Sequence record: OQ717042.1
Reading direction: 5' to 3' (one strand)
Origin: Acinetobacter phage EAb13
DNA: 64,000 nt
The translations under genes were made by a program, and so were the position numbers. Shown piece by piece: positions 7,355 to 64,000 of the stretch (positions within the stretch are counted from its first letter, which is position 1; each line of letters begins with the position of its first letter). The notes beneath the pieces were generated by a model, which was given only the letters and a program-made list of their open reading frames with translations, did not search any database and was not told the origin of the DNA.

Positions 7355-9454
7355 ATGGCTAATGTTATTGACCTTTTTACCAGAAAGATTAAAGACCTTC
7401 TGGTGGGTTCAGACCTTGGTGCTAACCCACACGTTTTTAAAGATGTAAAGATTCCAGTAGGTAACTTACCTTCCAACTATCGTGACATTGAAGCTCTTAC
7501 ATTAGAACAAATTTCAGAGCTGGCACTTGGTATGAACCCTAACGGTGGTAACTATTCAGAGGAACCACCGATTGTTTATGAAAATCTGGTGGAACGTTTC
7601 CCTGCAGACTGCTGGACCGTAGATGGTGTACGCAGTATGTCATTCTGTGTGGTCGGTGAAAAGGATGATGGCTTCGATGTTTACTGGACTTCACGTCGTA
7701 AAAATGACTTTGCTGCAGTCATCTGGTTTAGTGAAGACTTAAACATGCACCCATACCTAGCGTATGAAACTAAGCGTGACTACCGTGGCTGTACCTTATC
7801 ATTTTCCATTGACCTAGAAGGTCAAGTACCAAGTATCTCAGACGAGAAGCTAGGCTTGGTTATGACTGTCATGACTGTAAACAGTTATGGTCAGTTCATC
7901 CCTCAATATCTACGCCTTGCCAACTTCGCAGACCCAGCTACATTGACTGACACCCATGCTGACATTACGATCAACTGGGACACGGCCAAGGCTGGGTTCT
8001 ATGCCGACACTAATTTCCCCAAAACAAACATCCAACGTATCTTTATTGGGTGCTTAACCAATGGCTTTGACATTGATAGCACTCAACCATTGCCTGCAGC
8101 AGAAACTGCAGCTATGAAAATCACAAATATGCGCTGCACTGGTGAACAGAGTAAGTTTATCCGTCGGACAATGGCTGTGCCACAGCACACGATTGGCATG
8201 TGTACCAGTTATGATGATAGCTATAACGTAAACCCTTACCGTATCATCAAGAACTGCTTCATGCTTGGCTATCGCGGCCACGTGAACCATTACTGTGGTA
8301 TGTCTCATTACTACAACCAGAAATGGGATGAGTCACAGCTTCGCTTTGTGGTAACCAAGGTTGAGGACCGACCACAATACAGTCTCATCAATAAAGAGAC
8401 TACTTTGTGGCATAAGTACATGGCTAAAGCCTGCAAGAAAATGTACATGCTGCCAATTTTTTCTGTGTCTTATGAAATGTTTTCGGAAGCTGCAGAATTA
8501 TCTTGGACTCAACGTGACTGGAACGATAACTATGGCCGTACAGGTTATGAGCCACCAAGTTATTTATTAAGCCCATGTATCCCAGAAGCCATGAACTGGT
8601 TACAGCAAGTATTTATTGAGTTTGCAGCTATTTCTGCGGGTGAAGGGTTAGTACCGCACCTGCAGGTAGGTGAACCATGGTGGTGGATTAATAGTGACGG
8701 TAAACCTTGTATTTATGATTACCCTACACGGGTTAAATTTAATGCTGAGACAGGGTTATTTGCGCCAGAAATCCCTAACCGTATGGACACACACTTACTT
8801 GAACAATCACCTTACAAAGAATTTGCTGCATTCTTGCGTAAGGAATTGGGTAATTCTGTTGTGGCCGTGCGTACAGCAGTGAAACAGGTTTATCCAGAAG
8901 CATTGGTTACAACACTATTTTTCTTACCTTCCATCTTGGATGAAGAAACCAGTGGTATTGCTTCAACGATTAACTATCCAGTAGAGCAGTACAAGTACCC
9001 TAACCTTGACTTTATCCAGACTGAAACCTATGACTGGTTGATTATTGGTAAATTTAACAAGGCTTTACGTGGTTTTACTTCTGCCATTGATGAGTTAGGA
9101 TACCCACCAGACTTGGTACACTACCTGCTTGGCTTTGTCCCAGATGATTTCTTGGGCAAGCTAATTATCCCTAACTATGATCTTAAAAAGGACGGGGTAA
9201 AGGTCTGGCAGTCTATCATGGGTAATGCTTACCTTGGTAAAGAATACAATGTGGCTAAGCAGTATATCTGGGCATACAACCAAGTTATGCGTGATGGTCT
9301 GGTTATCCAGCCAGAGCTGTTCTTGCGTAAGTTCTGGATATTGAATAGCCTGTATTTGAGTCAGGTCCGTGAAGGTGAAGTGTTGGGCACACCAATTGAT
9401 AACCTCCCTTGGAACCCTGTGCGTCCACCACAGCCAGAAACTCCAAATGTATAA
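7355..9454 (+). CDS. putative tail fibre/receptor-binding protein, paralogue 1 (699 aa)
   Basis: N-terminal ~60 aa (DLLVGSDLGANPHVFKDVKIPVGNLPSNYRDIEALTLEQISELAL) is recognisably homologous to the N-termini of ORFs 10467 and 11575; large W/Y-rich C-terminal region. Confidence 0.4.
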   Translation: MANVIDLFTRKIKDLLVGSDLGANPHVFKDVKIPVGNLPSNYRDIEALTLEQISELALGMNPNGGNYSEEPPIVYENLVERFPADCWTVDGVRSMSFCVVGEKDDGFDVYWTSRRKNDFAAVIWFSEDLNMHPYLAYETKRDYRGCTLSFSIDLEGQVPSISDEKLGLVMTVMTVNSYGQFIPQYLRLANFADPATLTDTHADITINWDTAKAGFYADTNFPKTNIQRIFIGCLTNGFDIDSTQPLPAAETAAMKITNMRCTGEQSKFIRRTMAVPQHTIGMCTSYDDSYNVNPYRIIKNCFMLGYRGHVNHYCGMSHYYNQKWDESQLRFVVTKVEDRPQYSLINKETTLWHKYMAKACKKMYMLPIFSVSYEMFSEAAELSWTQRDWNDNYGRTGYEPPSYLLSPCIPEAMNWLQQVFIEFAAISAGEGLVPHLQVGEPWWWINSDGKPCIYDYPTRVKFNAETGLFAPEIPNRMDTHLLEQSPYKEFAAFLRKELGNSVVAVRTAVKQVYPEALVTTLFFLPSILDEETSGIASTINYPVEQYKYPNLDFIQTETYDWLIIGKFNKALRGFTSAIDELGYPPDLVHYLLGFVPDDFLGKLIIPNYDLKKDGVKVWQSIMGNAYLGKEYNVAKQYIWAYNQVMRDGLVIQPELFLRKFWILNSLYLSQVREGEVLGTPIDNLPWNPVRPPQPETPNV

Positions 9455-54426: not shown

Positions 54427-55934
54427 TACTTGACAGCATTGCTTTTCGCACTAGCGTCAGACTTTCGGGTTTGTGCTCGTTGACGAGAATCAGGTTGATC
54501 TTTCTGCGGTGTATTTGTCTTTGCGTTTTGCGCTTGACTCGTCGCATCATTTCCATTACCTGCCGCTTGCTGAGCTTCTAAAAATCCTGTACCTGATAAT
54601 GTAGGTGCATTAGGTGGTTTTGGTCGATTATACATAGCTAAATGGTACTCATCATCTGAAATAATTCCAAGTGATAAGTCTTTTTGCAATCGAGCCTGTT
54701 TTTGTACCCACGCTGGTTCAAGTTCATTTGGTGGGCGCATTTCTGGCTTGTCAAAATAAACTTCAACATAACTTTGTGAACCACTCACGCGCATAGCGAA
54801 AGTCAAAAATTGACTCCATACTTCTGCTAATGGTTCATTCAGTTCTGCAGCTTGCATACTGAAAACTTGTGCTTCAACAGATGCAGTATTCACACCAGAA
54901 GCGCCACGGCCTAAAACTGTTGCTACAGATTTTAAAGCAGCTTGGTTTTGACCATTTAGAACATCAATGACAGGTTGAATGTCAATTGCTGAACCTGCGC
55001 CACCGCCACCACTTACATCTAAAGTGCTTACTTCGAGAGAGTCAGTGTGAACAATCGGTTGGGTAGGGCGAATCGTACCAAACTTACGAGTTACGTCATT
55101 CAAAACACTATTTACGAAAGTGAGTCGTTTCTTATCGTCACGACGGTCAACTTCACTCATGTTTCTGACAATAACGTCTTCAAGTAATTTAATGGTCATC
55201 CGTGGATAGCCATTAATTTGCATAATGTCATAAAGGTCGCCAATAATTTGGAGACGGGCATAGACAGTATTAATAACCGAAATAAAGTTACTCTTACTGT
55301 AAAGTTTGCTTGGGTCCTGACGATGGGCAGCGTAGTACACAGTTGGAAGGTTTAGATCAATTGAATCATTACCTTTTTTCTGTACTGGTGTAGGTCGGCC
55401 AACTTTCTTTTCGTACCACTCAAAACTGTTGGTATCAATAAGACGTGCATCTTGTAGGCCAAACTTCTGGTCCATAATCATTTCAAGCGCAATAGAACCA
55501 CGCTTTAAAACCATGAAACGTAATTGCTCATTTCGGGTTTTCATGCTTCGCGGCATAGAAAAACCTTGTGAATAATCAGTAACATAGGTTAATTGTGAAA
55601 TGATTTGGGCTACTTGTGCCATACCTTGAGAATCAATTTGATTATCAATGGTTTTCACCACATAACGCATTTCTGTATTACTAAGAGTCAGGTAGGCAGC
55701 GACTGCAGCACTTACGTCTGGGTCATAAGTCATTAATTTTTCAATTAAATCATCGTCTGCATCTGTGGTCCGTTCATTCAGAAGGTCACGCAAATGGTTG
55801 TCAGTATCGGGTGCACCTACCGCTTGGGTAGATTGCTGGGGGTCGAAGTTCGGGGTGAGCGAAGCTCCCCCGTTCTTAAACCCCTTGGGTAAGATTACTT
55901 CACCGATCTTACCTAAAATATCGAAGCCTGCCAT
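54426..55934 (-). CDS. portal protein (lambda gpB-like position)
   Basis: 502 aa directly downstream of terminase with ATGA-type overlap. Confidence 0.65.
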   Translation of the reverse strand: MAGFDILGKIGEVILPKGFKNGGASLTPNFDPQQSTQAVGAPDTDNHLRDLLNERTTDADDDLIEKLMTYDPDVSAAVAAYLTLSNTEMRYVVKTIDNQIDSQGMAQVAQIISQLTYVTDYSQGFSMPRSMKTRNEQLRFMVLKRGSIALEMIMDQKFGLQDARLIDTNSFEWYEKKVGRPTPVQKKGNDSIDLNLPTVYYAAHRQDPSKLYSKSNFISVINTVYARLQIIGDLYDIMQINGYPRMTIKLLEDVIVRNMSEVDRRDDKKRLTFVNSVLNDVTRKFGTIRPTQPIVHTDSLEVSTLDVSGGGGAGSAIDIQPVIDVLNGQNQAALKSVATVLGRGASGVNTASVEAQVFSMQAAELNEPLAEVWSQFLTFAMRVSGSQSYVEVYFDKPEMRPPNELEPAWVQKQARLQKDLSLGIISDDEYHLAMYNRPKPPNAPTLSGTGFLEAQQAAGNGNDATSQAQNAKTNTPQKDQPDSRQRAQTRKSDASAKSNAVK

Positions 55935-57694
55935 TAACGACTACCTAGAAAGCTAAAGGAATTGTTGGGTACTAATAAGTTTGTGTCCATGGTTCCCAAC
56001 AAAATCACTGAGTTGGTTGAACCATTAGAAGTGTCATATGCATAACCCTGATAATACTGTAAAACTGCTTGGTAATTATAGGCGCAAGAGTGGAAATAGT
56101 GATCATTTTTATCAATCTTTTTCCAGATAGGTAATTTTTCCATACCTTCCTTGCTTTCCACCATGACACGGACCATACCACGAAGATGCTTAATAATCGT
56201 CTCTTTCTGGGTCCCGAAACCACCGAAAGTCATGTAGCCTGCACGAAGTGCGTCAGCAAAACAGTCCAGATGGTAAGTACGGTTTACAGCCAAGTAACTC
56301 AATATTCCGTACTCATCATTTTTAGCAACAATTGGTGCACCCTTTTGTTGTTCGTACTGGATTGGCATAATTTGTTTAGCAGACCAGTCGCGGACTTTTT
56401 CAGCATCAGAAATTAAAGGTAGTCGGTCAATGTGGCCCCCGACAATGTTAAATTTTTCAAATAAAAATTTAACCTTGCTCAACAGCAAATCTTTTTTGAC
56501 CGTTTCAAAGGTCACATATTCAACACGGTTTACTGCAGTGGCTTTGCTGACTGTAATGTGACAGACAGCACCCATGTCGATGCCAATAAAATGTGGTACT
56601 TCGTTGGTTGGGTTCTCATAATCAATTTCACGCTTATGATTCATGAACAATGTACGAAGTAACGAGTCAGAAATACGTTCATCCGACGTTTCATGCGTCA
56701 AGCCCAGTACCGTGTTCTTGAAACCTTTCATGTTGTCTAAAGAAACATACTTAATCAAACTTTCCAAGATGTATTGAGCATCAAGGCTACGGGTTGAAAA
56801 AGGGCTAATGCGATAGCCACGAATCTGACGATGTGGATGCGCTGGCACCCAACTATGGTTTTCTTTATCACCATAGGTAACTTTCTTACCGCACTTCACA
56901 CAAATTGAATATGCTTCTGAAAAATTGATACGGTACTTATCAATCCATACTGGGTCGAAGTTCGACAAATCATCATCAGCTTCCATTGGTAAATTTGGAA
57001 TGCGAATATATTTGGTTGTGAACTCAGGCATCTGGTAATGCGTACAGTGTGGGCACTTAAATAAATATTCGTGCTGGTCCGATGTTTCAAATAATGCTGA
57101 AATCCCCATACCTTCATAGGTCGGGGTTGAATAGTTGTGGTTGATCTTTAAATCAGAACCCTGTAAACGCGAGTTGAACAAGGCAATAATCTGTGGGTCC
57201 GATAAATCAATCTCATCGTTGAACACTACGTCGGCTGGCTGTGATGTTGCAGCTTTTTCATTGGCTGGGAACATCAACATTTGTGAAGTACCAACTTCGG
57301 TCACCTCAATCGAACGAATTGGTTTTTTACCTTCGGCATTTAAGCCATGGAAAATCTCATCGTTGGTCAAAATGGGCAATACACGGTTTTGGTACACACG
57401 TTTACGCATGTCCTTATCAGGCATGGTGTAAATTAAGTTGCGATAGGGGTTACGTGTGACAAATGCCAATGCTTTTCGTAGCTGCACTTCGGTCAAACCA
57501 ATTTGGGATGGTTTGATAACGTGCATTTCACGGGCCATATCATTCAAGATGGCTTCCTGAAAAGGGTATCGGTCACAGGTAAATGGAATACCTTGCAATG
57601 TGGTATTCTTATTTACCCATTCCATGTACGTCATTGGGTTGATCATTTCACCCAAAAACGATGCCATGCGGGTTTTATACGTGCCTTTGCTCAT
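55934..57694 (-). CDS. terminase large subunit, GpA-like
   Basis: 586 aa with internal zinc-ribbon CPHCTHYQ ... CVKCGKK typical of lambda gpA-family terminases; first gene of the minus-strand morphogenesis operon. Confidence 0.75.
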   Translation of the reverse strand: MSKGTYKTRMASFLGEMINPMTYMEWVNKNTTLQGIPFTCDRYPFQEAILNDMAREMHVIKPSQIGLTEVQLRKALAFVTRNPYRNLIYTMPDKDMRKRVYQNRVLPILTNDEIFHGLNAEGKKPIRSIEVTEVGTSQMLMFPANEKAATSQPADVVFNDEIDLSDPQIIALFNSRLQGSDLKINHNYSTPTYEGMGISALFETSDQHEYLFKCPHCTHYQMPEFTTKYIRIPNLPMEADDDLSNFDPVWIDKYRINFSEAYSICVKCGKKVTYGDKENHSWVPAHPHRQIRGYRISPFSTRSLDAQYILESLIKYVSLDNMKGFKNTVLGLTHETSDERISDSLLRTLFMNHKREIDYENPTNEVPHFIGIDMGAVCHITVSKATAVNRVEYVTFETVKKDLLLSKVKFLFEKFNIVGGHIDRLPLISDAEKVRDWSAKQIMPIQYEQQKGAPIVAKNDEYGILSYLAVNRTYHLDCFADALRAGYMTFGGFGTQKETIIKHLRGMVRVMVESKEGMEKLPIWKKIDKNDHYFHSCAYNYQAVLQYYQGYAYDTSNGSTNSVILLGTMDTNLLVPNNSFSFLGSR

Positions 57695-58023
57695 TATTTG
57701 TCCAAAATTGGGGTTTTCACTGCTAATTAGTGTATCTCAAACCTCAAATAATCGAAAATTTTTGTTGTTTACAAAAAGGTGAAAATGGACTTTTAAAACA
57801 GTTACATACGCACGTTAATCGGTTTTTTAAATACATATGTGTAAGTATTTGATTAAAAATAAGAAAAAACAGCAAATTTTTTAATAAATTTTTCTAATAA
57901 TCTATATAATCGTTTCTACTGTTATTTCATGTATTGAGATTCACCCCCAACCCAAGCAATATACCTTCAACAAATGCACTTTTACTCTTAATTGGGTAAA
58001 AGTTTTCTTTTTCGGGAAAAATT
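57695..58023. promoter_or_regulatory. divergent AT-rich intergenic region; candidate promoters and possible packaging (cos) site
   Basis: 329 bp, ~25% GC, between divergent operons; sigma70-like TTGAGA-17-CAATAT at 57934-57962 facing gene 58024. Confidence 0.3.
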
Positions 58024-58776
58024 ATGTTAAGCAACGATACGTCAAAGCATCCGAAAGTGACGCAAGAACAGATTCTAATGGTCAGTAAAATTCTATTGGG
58101 CACCCTGAAAGACCCAAAATATTTAGATGACTCACCATATAGTGTAATGATGCGTCGTACTATCCATGATCAAGTGGACCATGTAAAGAAACTGTTTGAA
58201 CAAGGAAAAGCTGCTACCAGCCAGATAGAAAAACCAAAACTTGTTGCTCCTGAGCCAATTCCAAAGCAACAGGTTGAATTACAGCCACGGCCACAGACAT
58301 TAAGCCGAGCTGATATTGTTCGTATCGAACGTGAAGAAAAGGAAAAAGTAGAAGCTGAATATCGTGAACAAGCACGAATTAAAGCTGAACGTGAAGCCAA
58401 GATGCAAGCCGAAGCAGAAGCTGCCCGTGAGGAAGCGGAAATTCAGGCAGCATTTTCAACCATATCGGAAGGTATTGAAGAACGCTCTCAGGAATATCGA
58501 GATCAGTTCGGCATCCTTATCCGTATGGAAAGATTGATTCGCTCAGTAACTAAAATTGCTGATACCAGTACAACAGATTCAAGCCGTTTATCTGCAGTAA
58601 GTAAAGCCATGGAGTACCAAGACAAACAAGTGGTTGTTCTGCAGCAGCTTTTAAACATTGAAAAAGTTGACAAGATTGAAAAAACAACACGTAAGTTCTT
58701 CACTGAATTGAGAAAACATCCAGACCTCAATGTAATTGCTGAACGCTACTTAACCCTATTAGATAATATTGAGTAA
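58024..58776 (+). CDS. hypothetical coiled-coil protein, E/K/A-rich (250 aa)
   Basis: First gene of the + strand operon after the divergent region. Confidence 0.55.
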   Translation: MLSNDTSKHPKVTQEQILMVSKILLGTLKDPKYLDDSPYSVMMRRTIHDQVDHVKKLFEQGKAATSQIEKPKLVAPEPIPKQQVELQPRPQTLSRADIVRIEREEKEKVEAEYREQARIKAEREAKMQAEAEAAREEAEIQAAFSTISEGIEERSQEYRDQFGILIRMERLIRSVTKIADTSTTDSSRLSAVSKAMEYQDKQVVVLQQLLNIEKVDKIEKTTRKFFTELRKHPDLNVIAERYLTLLDNIE

Positions 58777-58780
58777 TACA

Positions 58781-61462
58781 ATGTCAGAAAATATTTTCCG
58801 CGACCACGCACCGTTTTACTATGCAAAAGGGATAAACGTTATCCCTTTATATTGTGAATCAAAAAGACCACTGATCAATGCGTGGTCTGATTATTCTGAC
58901 TTTCCAATTACACCCGAAGTGCAAAACGTTTGGCTGCAGCTCCCAGATAATCACAACATTGGTGTGGTACTGGGTAAACAGTCTAACCTTGGTATGCTTG
59001 ATATCGACTATGCGGATGATGCGTTAATCGCTGAAATCCGTAAAATTTTGCCCGAAGGTTATGATAAGTGGACCCGTGTTGGTAAAAAAGGGATGGTGTT
59101 TGCATTCCGTTTTAACCCAAATGTGCCACGTGCTTTTAAATTAATCTCAAAAGAACACGGTACGATCTGTGAATATTTATGTACAGGTCAGCAGGTAGTA
59201 TTACCACCTTCGATTCACCCTGAGACTAAACAACCATACACGGCCAATAGTAATCTATGGGAAATCGTTGACCAATTACCGATGATTCCAGATGATCTTG
59301 AGGAAAAATTACGAAGCCTTATTGAACTCAAGGGTATCAGCTTGAGCAGTAAAGGTGTGGGTTCTTTAATTGAACACATACCTGCAGGTTTCCGTGACTC
59401 AAACCTCACACAAAAAGCTGGTTATCTTGCCAATGAAGTAATCCGTGGTCGTATTACTTTGCAGCAAGCTATCGACGGTCTATATGTAATTAACGAAGCT
59501 TTCACTGAAAAAGTGGAAGGTGACTTAATGGATATGGACAAGCACATCACCAACTTGATCAAATTTTTGAAGAAATCATTAATTTCTCAAAAAACTATGT
59601 TGCCTGCAGGTTGGGATGACAAGCTTGATTCAAAATTAAAAGCACAGCTGACAAATGATGATGCTTTTGTCACCGAAGAAAGTTATGAAGAAATTTTTGC
59701 TTGGTACACAGTAGAAGCTGACAATGCGTCGGACGAAAGTGCTCAACTGAATTTACTTGATGACGCTGTATTTAAAATCGCCCAAGTAAAGCAAGAGGAT
59801 AATATCCGTGAGACTTTCATCATCAATAAAATTGTTGAAAAGTCTGGCTTGCCAATTAAAGCTGGTGATGTAAAAGCACGTATCAGAAGCAAGCGTAATG
59901 AACTTCAAAAAATCATGATGGTTGGCACTGACGACAATGGTGAGAACGGGGTTGAAATTACCTTGAACACTCACACAGAAGTTGCCGCTGCAGCTCTCGA
60001 TTTTCTTGGAATGATGAACCCGATTCGTGTGGATGCTGGTGCACTTTACCGCTTCATGGGTAGTCATTGGGTTCTTTATCCACCAGAACAGGTCAAGCAA
60101 TTTATTGCCAAAAACTATATCAGTCTGGATGTGATGAAGCGTAACTCAGATATTGATGGTGTCTATAAGCAAATGCTTATCTTGGCAGAGTCTGGTTTAG
60201 AGCGTGAATCTAGCAGCTATGTAAACGTAGCCAACGGTATGATCGTGGAAAATAACACGGCTCGTATCACCAAAGATTCACCAGAAATGGAAACCAAGAT
60301 TCAGCAGGTTCGTGACAATGTTCTGCAGTCGCCACAAGTAAAAATGGGCATGTGGACTGACGAGCAAATTAATGAAGCTCAAGAAAATGCTGTCAAGCGT
60401 TTTATTGATGGTATGAACACACCATTGCACTTTATCAACCATACTGAAACTTATGGTGCAACGTATGTTTTACCATATCGCTATTTACCAGAAGCTGCAG
60501 GGAAAATGCCTTTATTTGAACAGTTTCTCAAAGACTGTTGGGGCCATAGACCAGATTACGCAGAAACTGTAGCTGCACTACAGGAAGCACTTTATGTGTC
60601 GTTCATGGGTTGTGCAACCAAGTACCAACGTGCTTTCTTGCTTTATGGTGTAGCAAATTCTGGTAAATCAGTATTGCTTAAAATCGTGGCTTCGTTATTC
60701 CCAGATGAAACTAAGGCCAGTGTTAGCTTTGACCGTATGCATGAAAACCGCTACTTTGTTTCATTGCATCGTAAAAACATCAATATCATTGGCGAATTAA
60801 GTGAACGTAAACGTATCGAAGGTGACATTTTCAAGTCAATCATTGACGGTACGCCTATGTCAGCTTATCACCTGTATCGTGAGTCATTTATGTTGAACCC
60901 GATGACAGCACATTGGGCAGCTTCAAATCACTTGCCAAAAACTTATGACAGTTCCGAGGGCTTCACACGTCGCTGGTTATTTTTTTGGTTTGATCAACAG
61001 GTTGCACAGGATAAAGTGGATGTGGACTTGGCTAAGAAAATTATCAGCCAAGAACGTGAAGCTATCTTTGCTTGGGCTTTAGAAGCTGGTCAGCGCCTGA
61101 TTAAAAATCAAGGTTATACGCTGCCGAAAAGTCATAAACAGTTGCTGTCAGTATTGGCTTGTCAAACTAACCCAGCATTGTTTTTCTTGATCAAGGACCC
61201 AAGCATTGAAATCCAGAAATATATGCCTGAAAACAAGCAGAAGGAAGTGTATGAATGTACGGAACTTGACTTACATTTGCAATTCCGTCAGTTTATGAGA
61301 CTAGGGGTTGGTTCTAATAAGAATGTTGAAATGCAAGATTTCCGTCATATGCTTGATGAAATTATCAAGTCGCGTGGCATTGAGCGTTTCACACGTGAAG
61401 GCGATATCAATCAATGGTATCGTGGCATTAGAATCAAAAACATGAACATGAAGATGAAGTAA
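58781..61462 (+). CDS. bifunctional primase-polymerase (Prim-Pol) / SF3 (D5/P4-type) helicase
   Basis: N-terminal YYAKGINVIPLYCESKRPLINAWSDY Prim-Pol-like region; C-terminal Walker A GVANSGKS and Walker B region; ATG 58781 preferred over TTG 58769. Confidence 0.8.
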   Translation: MSENIFRDHAPFYYAKGINVIPLYCESKRPLINAWSDYSDFPITPEVQNVWLQLPDNHNIGVVLGKQSNLGMLDIDYADDALIAEIRKILPEGYDKWTRVGKKGMVFAFRFNPNVPRAFKLISKEHGTICEYLCTGQQVVLPPSIHPETKQPYTANSNLWEIVDQLPMIPDDLEEKLRSLIELKGISLSSKGVGSLIEHIPAGFRDSNLTQKAGYLANEVIRGRITLQQAIDGLYVINEAFTEKVEGDLMDMDKHITNLIKFLKKSLISQKTMLPAGWDDKLDSKLKAQLTNDDAFVTEESYEEIFAWYTVEADNASDESAQLNLLDDAVFKIAQVKQEDNIRETFIINKIVEKSGLPIKAGDVKARIRSKRNELQKIMMVGTDDNGENGVEITLNTHTEVAAAALDFLGMMNPIRVDAGALYRFMGSHWVLYPPEQVKQFIAKNYISLDVMKRNSDIDGVYKQMLILAESGLERESSSYVNVANGMIVENNTARITKDSPEMETKIQQVRDNVLQSPQVKMGMWTDEQINEAQENAVKRFIDGMNTPLHFINHTETYGATYVLPYRYLPEAAGKMPLFEQFLKDCWGHRPDYAETVAALQEALYVSFMGCATKYQRAFLLYGVANSGKSVLLKIVASLFPDETKASVSFDRMHENRYFVSLHRKNINIIGELSERKRIEGDIFKSIIDGTPMSAYHLYRESFMLNPMTAHWAASNHLPKTYDSSEGFTRRWLFFWFDQQVAQDKVDVDLAKKIISQEREAIFAWALEAGQRLIKNQGYTLPKSHKQLLSVLACQTNPALFFLIKDPSIEIQKYMPENKQKEVYECTELDLHLQFRQFMRLGVGSNKNVEMQDFRHMLDEIIKSRGIERFTREGDINQWYRGIRIKNMNMKMK

Positions 61463-61481
61463 TGCTAACGAGATAATTGCT

Positions 61482-61643
61482 ATGCCACAACGTGAACTTA
61501 CGCAACAGGAAAAGGCTGAGCAGGCAGAACGCGAACGGTTATGTCGTCGTTTCCTGAACACCTTTGAGGGAATCGGGTGGTTCCTATTGGTCATGGTCTG
61601 TGTGTTTATCGCGCACAGCAAAGGGCTGTTGCCCTTCCCGTAA
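61482..61643 (+). CDS. small protein with C-terminal TM helix (53 aa), not in ORF track
   Basis: ATG 61482; GIGWFLLVMVCVFIAH hydrophobic segment; followed by terminator. Confidence 0.3.
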   Translation: MPQRELTQQEKAEQAERERLCRRFLNTFEGIGWFLLVMVCVFIAHSKGLLPFP

Positions 61644-61671
61644 CACTAACACAAACACTAATACAAGTAAT

Positions 61672-61694
61672 GGCCCCGTTTGGGGCCTTTTGTT
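61672..61694 (+). terminator. rho-independent terminator
   Basis: GGCCCC-gttt-GGGGCC followed by TTTTGTT. Confidence 0.75.
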
Positions 61695-62236
61695 CGGCCG
61701 TGGCTTTGGCACAGGCTGGGGCTAAGGCACAGGCACCGTCACATTCTGGGTCTGGGCCACGTAGTAGGTCACGTACTACTGAAAAATGAGACGAAAATTT
61801 TTAGAACGGAGATACTGAACACTGTCGCACCCCACCAGCCTTCTTGTAGCAGAAAAAGCTACCTACCCTTCTGGGTGGCCGTGGCTAAGTCATTGAAAAT
61901 GAAATAGAAATAAAATATTTTAATTATTTTTATTAGTAGTGTTGTACTACAAATCATGTAGGGATATCATGAGCACATACCAAGCAGACAACGCTTAGTA
62001 TAGCGATAAGAACGCCACTTATTCGTGCGACTGGATAGTATACCTTTAACCGTAACTATTCGCTAGTCCAAACCATTATTTAAAAACTTGATAAGGTCGT
62101 TATCTATATATCTATAGTAATGTCTTATATTCGAGAATCGGACTTAACCACAGTACCGACGGTATAAACATTATGTATATAGTTAATTACCAAAAAAACG
62201 GTTTTATACTAGGCTAAGCACTCAACACTCAACAAT

Positions 62237-62301
62237 GGCCGTGGCCGTGGCAATGTCTGACTCATTAACACATTATCAGACAATGCCACTGACACGGCCA
62301 C
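62237..62301. promoter_or_regulatory. extended imperfect palindrome upstream of gene 62356
   Basis: GGCCGTGGCCGTGGCAATGTCTGA-15 nt-TCAGACAATGCCACTGACACGGCCAC; inner 12-bp arms (62249-62260 / 62276-62287) are perfect reverse complements. Confidence 0.6.
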
Positions 62302-62355
62302 AACTAACATTTAAATGTTATAACCAAGCCTAACGGCTTTTAGGAGTACACACTC

Positions 62356-62943
62356 ATGACTACAATCAATGACAAAGTATTAACTACTTTAAACACTCTT
62401 TCCAATACTGGAAAGAATGCAACAATCCTTTTAACCATTGCTAAAGCAATCAATGCAGATAAAGCATTACCCGCATGGGCAGAGGATACACTAGGGCAAC
62501 AGTTCTTTATTAACGTACTTACATCATCGGAGCGTACCATTGCTAAGGTATGTAAAGATGATTCATACCATGATTTACGCTCTATTGTGAATACATGGAA
62601 TAAAGCACAACGCTTGACAGTGGCACAGTATGAGACACTTAAAACGCTTATGACTATCAAAGTATTTCAAAATAATGAAGTATTGAAAGACATTAAAGCA
62701 CAAGCGGAAATGGTAGCAGCTTTGGCGGTTACTAAAGCCTTAATAGGTTGTCATGATGTAACAATCACGGGCAATGAAGTACAAAAGAAACAAGCCAAAG
62801 CAACGGATTATTTCTCTAACCTTGAAGCATTCAAGGCGGGCATTGATTCAGTAGAAAATGCGGACGATTTAGCGTTAATGATGGAAATCATCCAAGCGCG
62901 TTTAAATGCACAAGCACAAGCACAACACAAGAAAGTGGCATAA
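62356..62943 (+). CDS. hypothetical protein (195 aa) flanked by GGCCGTGGC motifs
   Basis: ATG with AGGAG RBS; helical, K/A-rich. Confidence 0.55.
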   Translation: MTTINDKVLTTLNTLSNTGKNATILLTIAKAINADKALPAWAEDTLGQQFFINVLTSSERTIAKVCKDDSYHDLRSIVNTWNKAQRLTVAQYETLKTLMTIKVFQNNEVLKDIKAQAEMVAALAVTKALIGCHDVTITGNEVQKKQAKATDYFSNLEAFKAGIDSVENADDLALMMEIIQARLNAQAQAQHKKVA

Positions 62944-62975
62944 TCAAGGCCACTTTCACGGCCACAAGGTTTTTT

Positions 62976-63101
62976 ATGAAATACGTCCTTTATGTAACCT
63001 TGGCAGTAGCTATAGGCTACTGCCTTTTTCACAACGCTGCCCAGCAAATCCAGCAACGCGACGAGCAAACGCAACGCCAAATATTGAACATTGACCAATA
63101 A
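62976..63101 (+). CDS. possible small membrane peptide (41 aa)
   Basis: ATG after AAGG; but contains a strong hairpin plus T-tract (63003-63031) internally, so it may be non-coding. Confidence 0.2.
   Translation: MKYVLYVTLAVAIGYCLFHNAAQQIQQRDEQTQRQILNIDQ
63003..63031 (+). terminator. rho-independent terminator
   Basis: GGCAGTAGC-tatag-GCTACTGCC followed by TTTTTC. Confidence 0.6.
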
Positions 63102-63104
63102 GAA

Positions 63105-63132
63105 AAGCAAACAAACCAGTTTGCTTTTTTTA
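63105..63132 (+). terminator. rho-independent terminator
   Basis: AAGCAAAC-aaacca-GTTTGCTT followed by TTTTTTATT. Confidence 0.65.
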
Positions 63133-63202
63133 TTGGTCGCGCATTTGGCGGGGCCGTGGCAGTGGCAAAACCCATATAACTGATTTTTTAAGGAATTTTG
63201 AA

Positions 63203-63598
63203 ATGACGCACAAAATTTTTGACAAATTGCCTGATTGTGATTTACCACAATATCGCACTTACACAAGTCCAGATTTTAATATGAACGCATACATTGCCAA
63301 GGTGTTTGACAATAGTCGAGCATACCGAGAAGCTTTTAACTTGCCGTATGATATGAAAGGCAGTTTGGAAAAAATAGCGATTGGAAATGTACGAGTTATA
63401 GACTTGCTAAGGATGAACACACGACCATTTCTTGATGCTAAATTTTTAAAAGAAAAGGCTAGAGAATTTAAAGCTCAATTAGATGAAGCATGGACTGATC
63501 TTGCGAATAATGAAGCTTATAGTTTTTATTATATAAATCGTGATTCTGCATTAACTCATGATATTTATTTTATTTTAAATACTATTTTAGAGTATTAA
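63203..63598 (+). CDS. hypothetical protein (131 aa)
   Basis: ATG with AAGGAATTTTGAA RBS. Confidence 0.55.
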   Translation: MTHKIFDKLPDCDLPQYRTYTSPDFNMNAYIAKVFDNSRAYREAFNLPYDMKGSLEKIAIGNVRVIDLLRMNTRPFLDAKFLKEKAREFKAQLDEAWTDLANNEAYSFYYINRDSALTHDIYFILNTILEY

Positions 63599-63653
63599 TT
63601 ATAAGGTAAATATTTAGAATAAATTTTGAGCATTTATTAACTTTTATTTTAAA

Positions 63654-63843
63654 TTGACACGACTAGAACAAGTTACGTTCGCCGTGTCAAGGACTTTTTA
63701 AAAGTTGATCAAAATTTGTACCGAAAAAATGTGATTTTTCTGTCATTTCGGTCAATTTGGTTAAAAAAGCGTCAAAGTTTATAAAAATGTATTTTGATCG
63801 AAATTTGCACGATTTCGGCCAAAAGTTAGGTTTCGGCCAAAAG
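63654..63843. repeat. iteron-like repeat cluster in AT-rich non-coding DNA
   Basis: Palindrome TTGACACG (63654-63661) ... CGTGTCAA (63683-63690). Three copies of TTTCGG(T/C)CAA at 63746-63755, 63814-63823 and 63831-63840, the last two inside the 13-mer TTTCGGCCAAAAG. Near-repeat AAATTTG(T/C)ACCGA at 63710 and AAATTTGCACGA at 63797. Confidence 0.55.
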
Positions 63844-64000
63844 CTGAAATTTTAAGAAGTACCATTTTGCTTGGGTGTAACTTTCTAGGATAACAATTTA
63901 AATTTTATTTTTTCATGTGAGAGAGAAATGAAAAATATAGAATAATAGTATAGCAAATATATAAATGTAACAGAGTATGTAAAATATATGTCTCTTACAC

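Follow-up and report, generated by a model that had tools for sequence, protein, structure and literature searches.

Why does a GC-rich word of 9 nt, GGCCGTGGC, recur near the gene boundaries at the right-hand end of the genome of Acinetobacter phage EAb13 (sequence record OQ717042.1), and what might read it there? The stretch of 64,000 nt analyzed here is referred to as the window, and all coordinates apply to it. The window is evidently the right-hand 64 kb of a linear siphophage genome, and the region that holds the words (61696-63160) straddles the inner boundary of a long direct terminal repeat (DTR). We propose that the words belong to a set of docking sites for one phage-encoded, sequence-specific factor, which would mark the concatemer junction, that is, the DTR and its flanks. 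How phages with long DTRs choose the start of replication, and how they recognize, cut, and duplicate their genome ends, is poorly understood outside T7.

Results

The repeated word is part of a hexamer-phased element

The window contains seven copies of GGCCGTGGC against 0.10 expected from dinucleotide shuffles, and none of 100 shuffles exceeded one copy. This bears out the enrichment claimed in an earlier note on this DNA, which had counted at least seven copies in both orientations within 1.5 kb. Five of the seven exact copies lie within 61696-63160 (at 61696, 61877, 62237, 62243, and 63152), all on the + strand, and the two inverted copies in this region are partial, with 8/9 matches for GGCCGTGTC at 62291-62299 and 7/9 at 62957-62963, where GGCCGTG stands alone. 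The remaining exact copies are on the - strand, at 54903 in the portal gene and at 58284 in a 250-amino-acid (aa) open reading frame (ORF), gpX. They are not conserved in relatives and were therefore treated as incidental.

The repeat unit is a hexamer-phased, 6-nt-periodic element with a GTGGC core rather than the 9-mer from which the analysis started. Three phased GGC hexamers (GGC...GGC...GGC) occur seven times versus 0.1 expected, solely at 61696-61737, 62237, and 63152, and the GTGGC core occurs 15 times in 61690-63175 versus 2.97 expected from the remaining window, a fivefold excess (P = 6e-7). The longest tract is an array of 14 contiguous units, A0, which fills the gap from the terminator of the primase operon to a conserved box and the cut site that forms the DTR boundary. 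Its units 1 to 7 read GGCCGT GGCTTT GGCACA GGCTGG GGCTAA GGCACA GGCACC, and units 8 to 14 read GTCACA TTCTGG GTCTGG GCCACG TAGTAG GTCACG TACTAC. Autocorrelation within A0 reaches 0.47 and 0.51 at lags 6 and 12, respectively, versus ~0.16 to 0.28 at other lags. We propose that the full site approximates GGCCGT GGCNNT GGCA, of which the copies of GGCCGTGGC would be the exact-match members. The motif is restricted to the DTR region and is not spread genome-wide. A scan of IMG/VR for exact GGCCGTGGCCGTGGCA returned at least 120 loci with one match each, which were taken as chance matches.

Most of the placements given in the earlier note stand. Copies follow the primase-operon terminator (61672-61694), lie before and after gene 62356, and precede gene 63203; the copy at 61877, which had also been assigned to a gene boundary, is instead 53 nt inside the terminal repeat. 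A tandem copy does occur at 62237-62251. It borders a palindrome whose inner arms had been called perfect, but of their 12 positions 11 pair: the reverse complement of GGCAATGTCTGA is TCAGACATTGCC, and the sequence reads TCAGACAATGCC. The related partial repeats exist 1 to 2 nt away from where they had been placed, with GGCACAGGC at 61708 and 61726 and TCTGGGT at 61745 and 61870. The surroundings had been described as ~30% GC, but GC content around the repeats is 33 to 43% per kb, and the only truly AT-rich segment is 61894-61953 (15% GC).

The array keeps its phase across relatives, and the word varies by lineage

A megablast search with positions 58000-64000 identified four close relatives, all Acinetobacter baumannii siphophages: fJoAci04, 96% identical to the window, and fJoAci01, Mystique, and TCUP2199, 86 to 88% identical. 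The annotations of fJoAci04 and fJoAci01 show, at each end of the genome, a long terminal repeat determined with PhageTerm (2,182 and 2,238 bp, respectively), and the DTR boundary in the window was transferred from these annotations. The window and the fJoAci04 genome share their final 80 nt exactly, and the opening 25 nt of the latter align at window position 61824. The length of the DTR so defined equals the 2,177 bp published for EAb13 (PMC10508131). More divergent metagenomic relatives, designated L134 to L139, were found via gpX and the protein of gene 62356; a search of IMG/VR for related loci with the primase C terminus and the gene 62356 protein returned no relatives.

All sites are kept at homologous positions in fJoAci04, fJoAci01, Mystique, and TCUP2199, where copy numbers vary and the core is invariant. 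A 6-nt-periodic array is found between the primase-operon terminator and the invariant box in every relative, down to ~45% gpX identity, and a hairpin equivalent to the terminator lies upstream of it each time. The array region is 89 to 156 nt long, and lag-6 autocorrelation is 0.43 to 0.49 in all seven genomes compared. The units themselves differ: NNGACA/CAGCCA in L137, CTGACA/TAGACA in L139, and GGCACT/TTCCTT in L134 and L136.

The word differs between lineages in a concerted manner. In the window group, the variant GTGGCCGT is present at all clusters. In L137, which lacks GTGGCCGT, the array has three copies of GTGGCTGT on the opposite strand, and GTGGCTGT recurs in each arm of the dyad that precedes gene 62356 and ~70 nt beyond the far DTR boundary; in L139, the dyad has GTGGCTGT, and the other sites have GTGGCAC or GGGCAC. 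The occurrence of the same variant at the array, the dyad, and the far-boundary site within one genome is the strongest argument in our data, and it points to one trans-acting reader per lineage. The suggestion in the earlier note that the words are binding sites for a single sequence-specific protein gains from this covariation and from the conserved positions. A motif copy also lies just past the other DTR boundary in fJoAci01, Mystique, TCUP2199, and L137 (~70 nt past it in fJoAci01 and L137), so that the marked zone would comprise the DTR and both of its flanks.

Comparison was extended through the primase to Achromobacter phage JWF, Xylophilus phage Lumi, and Caulobacter phage Seuss (30 to 38% identity). 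In all three, the portal and large terminase (TerL) genes are on one strand, and a small ORF and the primase are on the other. The primase is followed by a small ORF and then a terminator in Lumi and Seuss and by two endonuclease genes in JWF. Beyond the terminator, Seuss has five copies of GACCCGCGAGCGG, with its annotated DTR beginning ~106 nt past the array, and Lumi has a G-rich tract phased at 12 nt. Seuss and Lumi also carry a lineage-specific repeat array at the primase-terminator position.

A second hexamer-phased tract, C-rich, was noticed in fJoAci04 outside the part covered by the window (L005:2340-2450), 160 to 270 nt past the end of the left DTR copy. It reads …GGGGCT GGGGCC GTGACA TAACCC CAACCT GAACCC CAACCC GTACCC… and is followed by a large AT-rich palindrome at ~2650-2720, within a 600-nt noncoding stretch.

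gpX and the primase-helicase as a candidate reader module

The array lies directly downstream of an operon made up of gpX, a primase-helicase, and a small ORF (Table 1). The primase-helicase matches PF09250 (E = 7.6e-15) and PF19263 (DUF5906; E = 2.9e-10), its residues 552-808 match TIGR01613 (P4 family), and its N terminus matches ORF904 of pRN1. Residues 808-893 presumably form a winged helix, as we would expect for this family. gpX is the fastest-evolving member of the operon: it is 44 to 48% identical in relatives whose primase is 70 to 93% identical, and 44 to 50% identical between lineages. Its family is very narrow; among 1.84 billion representative proteins, a profile search retrieved only 22 relatives. 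Sequence and profile searches gave no match to gpX in Pfam, PHROG, NCBIfam, or the PDB. AlphaFold2 (AF2) models of gpX and of the gene 62356 protein were of low confidence (predicted local distance difference test [pLDDT] scores of 55 and 53, respectively).

One relative of gpX is informative. In the metagenomic protein P0024 (L143:355-1041), a DnaG CHC2 zinc ribbon (PF01807, E = 8e-24) replaces the N-terminal domain while the C-terminal domain is kept, and a Prim-Pol homologue, 54% identical, lies directly downstream. The zinc ribbon is the template-sequence reader in DnaG-type primases. Because of this fusion and the adjacent Prim-Pol gene, gpX is best regarded as a DNA-recognition subunit that associates with the primase and whose reader domain is exchangeable, and hence as a candidate specificity subunit of the primase-helicase. 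gpX had also been considered as a small terminase, given that it adjoins TerL and has a three-part helical layout; that candidacy was weakened by the DnaG zinc-ribbon fusion and by the translational coupling to the primase.

The repeats as a possible origin or primosome-loading region

The reading that we favor, and hold only tentatively, is that the repeats are iteron-like origin or primosome-loading sites for the upstream replication module, gpX plus the Prim-Pol/superfamily 3 (SF3) helicase. A reader, either the variable N-terminal domain of gpX or the C-terminal tail of the helicase, would coat the array at 61696-61779 and the neighboring site S2. The helicase would then assemble and open the 15%-GC tract at 61894-61953, aided by transcription from the neighboring promoter, and Prim-Pol would prime synthesis. 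The same protein would also occupy the dyad that precedes gene 62356 and the -35 position upstream of gene 63203, and would there damp the first genes encoded in the DTR. Protein binding, the identity of the reader, and a start of replication at this place are the parts of this proposal that we infer.

The layout can be compared with that of known origins. As in an iteron-type origin, a cluster of short repeats lies immediately 3' of the candidate initiator gene. S2 adjoins the AT-rich tract on its left; on the right the next sites are 280 nt away (62236), with the inverted copy at 62291. In phage P4, the alpha protein acts at ori and crr, and the octamer TGTTCACC is read by the C-terminal domain of alpha. 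The window shares with P4 a primase-helicase of the same family and direct and inverted short repeats in two separated clusters, one of them next to the 3' end of the primase-helicase gene; it differs in that its helicase tail does not covary with the repeats.

Staphylococcus pathogenicity island (SaPI) origins have six to twelve penta- or hexanucleotide iterons directly downstream of rep, flanking an AT-rich region, with some inverted (PMC9371898). Likewise, the hexamer units in the window follow the Prim-Pol/SF3 helicase operon and bracket the 15%-GC tract. Unlike in the SaPIs, they keep a contiguous 6-nt register, form clusters over more than 1.5 kb, between genes and across the DTR boundary, and may be read by a separate small protein, gpX; the helicase tail does not covary with the unit sequence. 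In the Sulfolobus plasmid pRN1, the origin is 54 bp downstream of orf904, past a terminator, and a similar stem-loop has been reported 3' of related replication proteins in several bacteriophages (PMC4234260). The pRN1 orf56/orf904 arrangement, a small ORF plus a Prim-Pol/SF3 helicase operon followed by a terminator hairpin and a downstream cis element required for replication, recalls that of the window. However, the pRN1 element is a single stem-loop of ~100 nt with no iteron array, whereas the large stem-loop of the window (62236-62300) is ~770 nt past the primase gene and inside the DTR.

Several observations weigh against an origin. The C-terminal 93 residues of the helicase are near-identical in L134, L137, and L139 though the array units differ, so that the tail, as the expected DNA-binding domain of the initiator, lacks the covariation seen for SaPI Rep; the units may covary with gpX. 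The sites spread over more than 1.5 kb, with the covarying copy ~70 nt beyond the far DTR boundary, which fits a terminal-repeat function better than a compact origin. The primase operon always adjoins the DTR boundary in this phage family, so that proximity to the primase and proximity to the cut site are inseparable. The orientation of the array flips from + in the window to - in L137. Sequence and profile searches and the low-confidence AF2 models yielded no binding protein, and the P0024 fusion comes from one 1.2-kb contig at 1.4x coverage. GC skew was dropped as an indicator because it tracks only the direction of genes and transcription and is silent on an origin.

The origin proposed in the earlier note stays plausible, given the adjacent Prim-Pol and P4-family SF3 helicase and the position of SaPI and pRN1 origins directly 3' of such genes. 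Its companion suggestions have fared less well. The AT-rich block at 61900-62230 is mostly a conserved, probably transcribed and structured leader past a predicted sigma-70-like promoter, not an unwinding element; nothing speaks for a partition function, this being a lytic phage; and neither of the suggested binders, the products of genes 62356 and 63203, gave a DNA-binding signal.

The array and the genome cut sites

Because the repeat region spans the DTR boundary, a context that the earlier note had not recognized, genome-end processing becomes an equally serious reading, although we regard it as somewhat doubtful. Here the sites would serve a terminase or an accessory factor that cuts the concatemer at both DTR boundaries and duplicates the repeat, with lineage-specific repeats lending specificity to a conserved cut site. 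There are precedents for such a division of labor: in lambda, cosB beside cosN, and in P1, the clustered hexanucleotides of pac, are repeated protein-binding elements that give packaging its specificity, and the CCTAAAG arrays of T7 may be a further case. The window differs from lambda and P1 in having long direct repeats rather than cohesive or headful ends and in having many sites far from the cut.

The geometry at the boundary favors this reading. The array adjoins the mapped genome terminus, and the relation from array to box to cut site is fixed: the array always stops ~15 to 20 nt short of the box TTTTAGAACGGAGAT, the box sits 25 nt before the DTR start, and in the window the 3' end of the array is 45 nt from the DTR start at 61824. 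The length of the array is free to vary, as expected of an architectural element. The longer box at 61794-61823 is presumed to be the terminus-cleavage context. The sequence (A/T)ACAC precedes both DTR cuts, and the annotated DTR boundary of Seuss, TCGAACAG/TCGACCCCAACG (a slash marks the cut), resembles the left one of the window, CTGAACACT/GTCGCACCCCACC; together these suggest a conserved terminase cleavage motif at the DTR ends. The cut context is conserved within the Acinetobacter clade while the array units are lineage specific. In fJoAci01 and L137, the lineage's own variant ~70 nt outside the other DTR boundary means that both cuts are flanked, and T7 has a similar layout, with CCTAAAG inside and around its terminal repeat.

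Other findings tell against a packaging role. No small terminase subunit is annotated or detectable in the fJoAci04 genome, and the sole candidate near TerL, gpX, appears to be primase associated. It is hard to see what part in cutting would fall to the sites deep in the DTR (the dyad, the copies after the gene 62356 stop codon, and the site where a promoter of gene 63203 would lie). To our knowledge, the T7 arrays themselves have no proven function.

Some further features of the termini were recorded. The left DTR cut context reads ...TTTTAGAACGGAGATACTGAACACT/GTCGCACCCC and the right end reads ...TGTAACAGAGTATGTAAAATATATGTCTCTTACAC/; both are conserved (window 61794-61824 and 63966-64000; L012:8043-8091; L137:5470-5510 and 7540-7580). 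The distal end of the array forms a small hairpin, GTAGTA-N7-TACTAC (61761-61779, ~45 to 60 nt before the DTR boundary), which in fJoAci01 and Mystique reads ATAGTA...TACTAT, with one compensatory pair. The large terminase of the metagenomic relatives (L134:6824-9667, L135, L136, L137, and L139) is a GpA-type ATPase of 888 to 956 aa with a LAGLIDADG domain, an intein-like insertion that is absent from the 586-aa TerL of the window (55934-57694). The AT-rich, noncoding right end of the DTR (63600-64000) contains two copies of TTTCGGCCAAAAG at 63813 and 63831, two of TTGATC(A/G)AAATTTG(T/C)AC at 63705 and 63794, and an inverted repeat, TTGACACG...CGTGTCAA, near 63654-63690.

Sites inside the terminal repeat and the case for operators

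Within the DTR, the sites lie close to predicted signals of gene expression (Table 1). S2 reads, in sixes, GGCCGT GGCTAA GTCATT (61877); its TG[GC]CTAAGTCATTGA portion is invariant in all relatives, and its upstream hexamer differs by lineage. It is followed by the AT-rich tract, which also reads as an UP-like element of the predicted promoter, and the promoter hexamers TTGTAC/TATCAT are kept in fJoAci01, L137, and L139. The conserved noncoding leader beyond (61965-62219) may be a structured leader or a small RNA on the first DNA entering the cell.

The next site is the dyad before gene 62356. The left arm, S3, reads GGCCGT GGCCGT GGCAAT GTCTGA (62237), and its partner, S3', reads GGCCGT GTCAGT GGCATT GTCTGA. 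The arms are 25 nt long (62236-62260 and 62276-62300) and 88% complementary, and the whole folds at -35.6 kcal/mol (z = -8). Because the relatives' lengths differ, the dyad was folded separately in each genome; it is kept in all relatives, with outer arms of GTGGC(C/T)GT and a differing interior. Between the dyad and the first gene, fJoAci01, Mystique, and TCUP2199 have an additional perfect hairpin with a 14-bp stem, AAGGCATTGCCCAC-AA-GTGGGCAATGCCTT (L002:7330-7380, L003:7350-7400, and L006:335-385). The window lacks this hairpin (at ~62302); in sequence, its stem is similar to the inner arms of the inverted repeat in the window (GGCAATG.../...CAATGCC).

Downstream of gene 62356, a hairpin over the stop codon is retained in L137 and L139 through compensatory changes, and the 12-nt unit GCCACTTTCACG that follows it varies from 1.5 to 4.5 copies among close relatives. 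The last site, S5, occupies an interval that is the sole room for a promoter of gene 63203. Three relatives, fJoAci01, Mystique, and TCUP2199, have a tandem GGCCGTGGCCGTGGCA there, and L137 and L139 have a dyad, GGGCAC-N5-GTGCC(C/A), instead. The distance to the -10 element is 23 nt in the window and 24 nt in L137.

These placements raise the possibility that the sites are transcriptional operators, at which an early phage DNA-binding protein would shut off or time the first DTR genes; we judge this unlikely. The candidates would be a Fis/NtrC-type helix-turn-helix protein of the early region or a ribbon-helix-helix protein, and the array behind the primase terminator would then act as a roadblock or a sink. 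Comparable cases are the omega repressor, which binds contiguous heptads in direct and inverted orientation, and TF1 of SPO1, which acts at early promoters in the terminal redundancy. In favor of operators, the -35 and spacer positions in the single interval where gene 63203 could have a promoter are taken up by S5, whose distance from the -10-like element is conserved, with a clear dyad instead in L137 and L139; the conserved dyad precedes gene 62356; S2 is just upstream of the AT tract and a conserved sigma-70-like promoter; and the motif is confined to the DTR region. In Lumi, a 15-bp palindrome, TTACTAGNCTAGTAA, which is operator-like and unrelated to GGCCGTGGC, stands directly upstream of the ribosome-binding sites of the equivalent genes after the primase (L011:8004-8025, 8857-8905, and 9431-9452), so that regulation of this kind appears to exist in the wider group.

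Against operators, the largest cluster, the 14 contiguous hexamers, is outside any promoter and is yet the sole element conserved family-wide. The apparent 23-nt spacing from S3' to the extended -10 of gene 62356 does not hold in fJoAci01, Mystique, and TCUP2199, where a 47-nt insertion interrupts it. The promoters are predictions, and the scan gave fewer promoter-like sites than shuffles did. No cognate regulator emerged: the proteins of genes 62356 and 63203 had no usable match in Pfam, PHROG, NCBIfam, or the PDB and no DNA-binding domain, and the early Fis/NtrC-type protein does not covary with the motif, its recognition helices differing between fJoAci04 and Mystique, which share the motif. 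Two specific promoter models were also discarded. The first, in which the motif stands in for the -35 element of an activator-dependent promoter (GGCC-N19-TATAAC at genes 62356 and 63203), is contradicted by the same 47-nt insertion at gene 62356, and no -10 follows the remaining motif copies at the GGCC-N19 distance. For a sigma-54 promoter (TGGCAC-N5-TTGC), the GG/GC spacing does not fit, as judged by eye.

It is distinctly improbable that the sites have no common trans-acting factor and are instead hairpins (terminators, RNase III-type sites, or mRNA stabilizers) plus slippage-prone hexanucleotide microsatellites homogenized by gene conversion, or Chi-like sites that shield the DNA ends from RecBCD: the strongly folding dyad, the compensated stop-codon hairpin, slippage-like shifts in the copy number of 6-nt and 12-nt units between very close relatives, and, for Chi, exact copies in the one orientation suited to RecBCD entry from the right end are consistent with it, but S2, S5, and the first array units keep the exact 9-mer without an inverted partner, hairpins and microsatellites leave unexplained why one variant recurs in the array, in the dyad, and past the far boundary, the array orientation is reversed in L137, and Rfam gave no known RNA family for the region, with only sub-threshold microRNA-hairpin matches to the inverted repeat.

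Table 1. Features in and around the repeat region, with window coordinates
Feature	Position	Strand	Description
gpX	58024-58776	+	250-aa ORF running into the primase start; translationally coupled to primase
Primase-helicase	58781-61462	+	Prim-Pol domain and P4-family SF3 helicase
53-aa ORF	61482-61643	+	Hydrophobic stretch; looks membrane spanning by eye
Intrinsic terminator of gpX-primase-small ORF operon	61672-61694	+	GGCCCCGTTTGGGGCC then TTTTGTT
Hexamer-phased array A0	61696-61779	+	14 units; 45-128 nt outside DTR boundary; starts 2 nt past operon terminator
Conserved box AAAATTTTTAGAACGGAGATACTGAACACT	61794-61823	+	Directly before DTR boundary; core TTTTAGAACGGAGAT invariant across window group, L137, and L139
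Right copy of DTR	61824-64000	.	2,177 bp; boundary via fJoAci04 genome start and end
Site S2	61875-61896	+	GTGGCCGTGGCTAAGTCATTGA; 53 nt into DTR, abuts AT-rich tract
AT-rich tract	61894-61953	+	15% GC; ranks third among the window's most AT-rich 60-mers
Predicted sigma-70-like promoter	61942-61970	+	-35 TTGTAC (61942-61947), 17-nt spacer, -10 TATCAT (61965-61970)
Conserved noncoding leader	~61965-62219		~255 nt; predicted to fold more stably than shuffled sequence in six genomes (z = -2.5 to -4.3)
Inverted repeat S3/S3'	62236-62300	.	Left arm tandem GGCCGTGGCCGTGGC; right arm 8/9 inverted copy
Gene 62356	62356-62943		195 aa
Hairpin AAAGTGGC-N9-GCCACTTT	62932-62956	.	Spans stop codon of gene 62356
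12-nt unit GCCACTTTCACG	within 62932-62965	.	After stop-codon hairpin; inverted partial motif copies
41-aa ORF	62976-63101		
Strong terminator hairpin	63093-63138	.	In gap between 41-aa ORF and gene 63203; 20-nt arms, 95% complementary, then T run
Site S5	63152-63169	+	GGCCGT GGCAGT GGCAAA; -35 and spacer position of gene 63203
-10-like TATAAC	63175-63180		Upstream of gene 63203
Gene 63203	63203-63598		131 aa; then AT-rich noncoding DNA to genome end

Discussion

The repeats at the right end of the EAb13 genome are real, and their general theme is familiar. Arrays of short repeats are known both at origins and around terminal repeats. What is new here is the contiguous 6-nt register, conserved in phase and not in sequence, the position at the boundary of a long DTR, the covariation of distant clusters, and the possible modular reader gpX. 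The published genome descriptions examined for this phage group do not mention these elements. Roles in initiation, in end processing, and as operators are not mutually exclusive, and the three readings are close.

The nearest layout among terminal repeats is that of T7. In its sequence, the first 340 nt contain 11 copies of CCTAAAG, of which 3 are in the terminal repeat and 8 follow closely after it, and 2 more copies stand just ahead of the right repeat. These arrays are known as SRL and SRR (Dunn and Studier). In both T7 and the window, a short word recurs with uniform orientation within the terminal repeat and immediately beyond each of its boundaries. They differ in that T7 has a heptamer at ~13-nt spacing around a gene-free repeat of 160 bp, whereas the units in the window are contiguous at 6 nt and the repeat is 2.2 kb long with genes. 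The 'repeat regions' in the terminal repeat of T5 are likewise of unresolved function (bioRxiv 10.1101/866236). The T5 arrays lie at the inner end of a 10-kb repeat, include DnaA boxes, and have no sequence or protein similarity to the window, and the two-step injection with its stop signal has no evidence in this phage.

The phages concerned, EAb13, TCUP2199, Mystique, fJoAci01, and fJoAci04, are being characterized against multidrug-resistant Acinetobacter baumannii. For them, our results amount to a compact map of cis elements, comprising a cut-site box, a hexamer array that is conserved in phase and variable in sequence, and covarying sites within the DTR, and they offer gpX together with the Prim-Pol/SF3 helicase as a candidate reader module. 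The map shows which DNA to retain when these phages are engineered or rebooted.

A bolder combination, which we consider very unlikely as it stands, would make the array a lineage-specific 'address' outside both DTR boundaries, read by a modular gpX with a swappable reader domain, such that loading of the primase-helicase there would drive the repeat-duplicating synthesis at concatemer junctions. If this were true, a single mechanism would couple the initiation of replication to the formation of genome ends in phages with long DTRs, and the long-unexplained repeat arrays around the T7 terminal repeat would gain a function.

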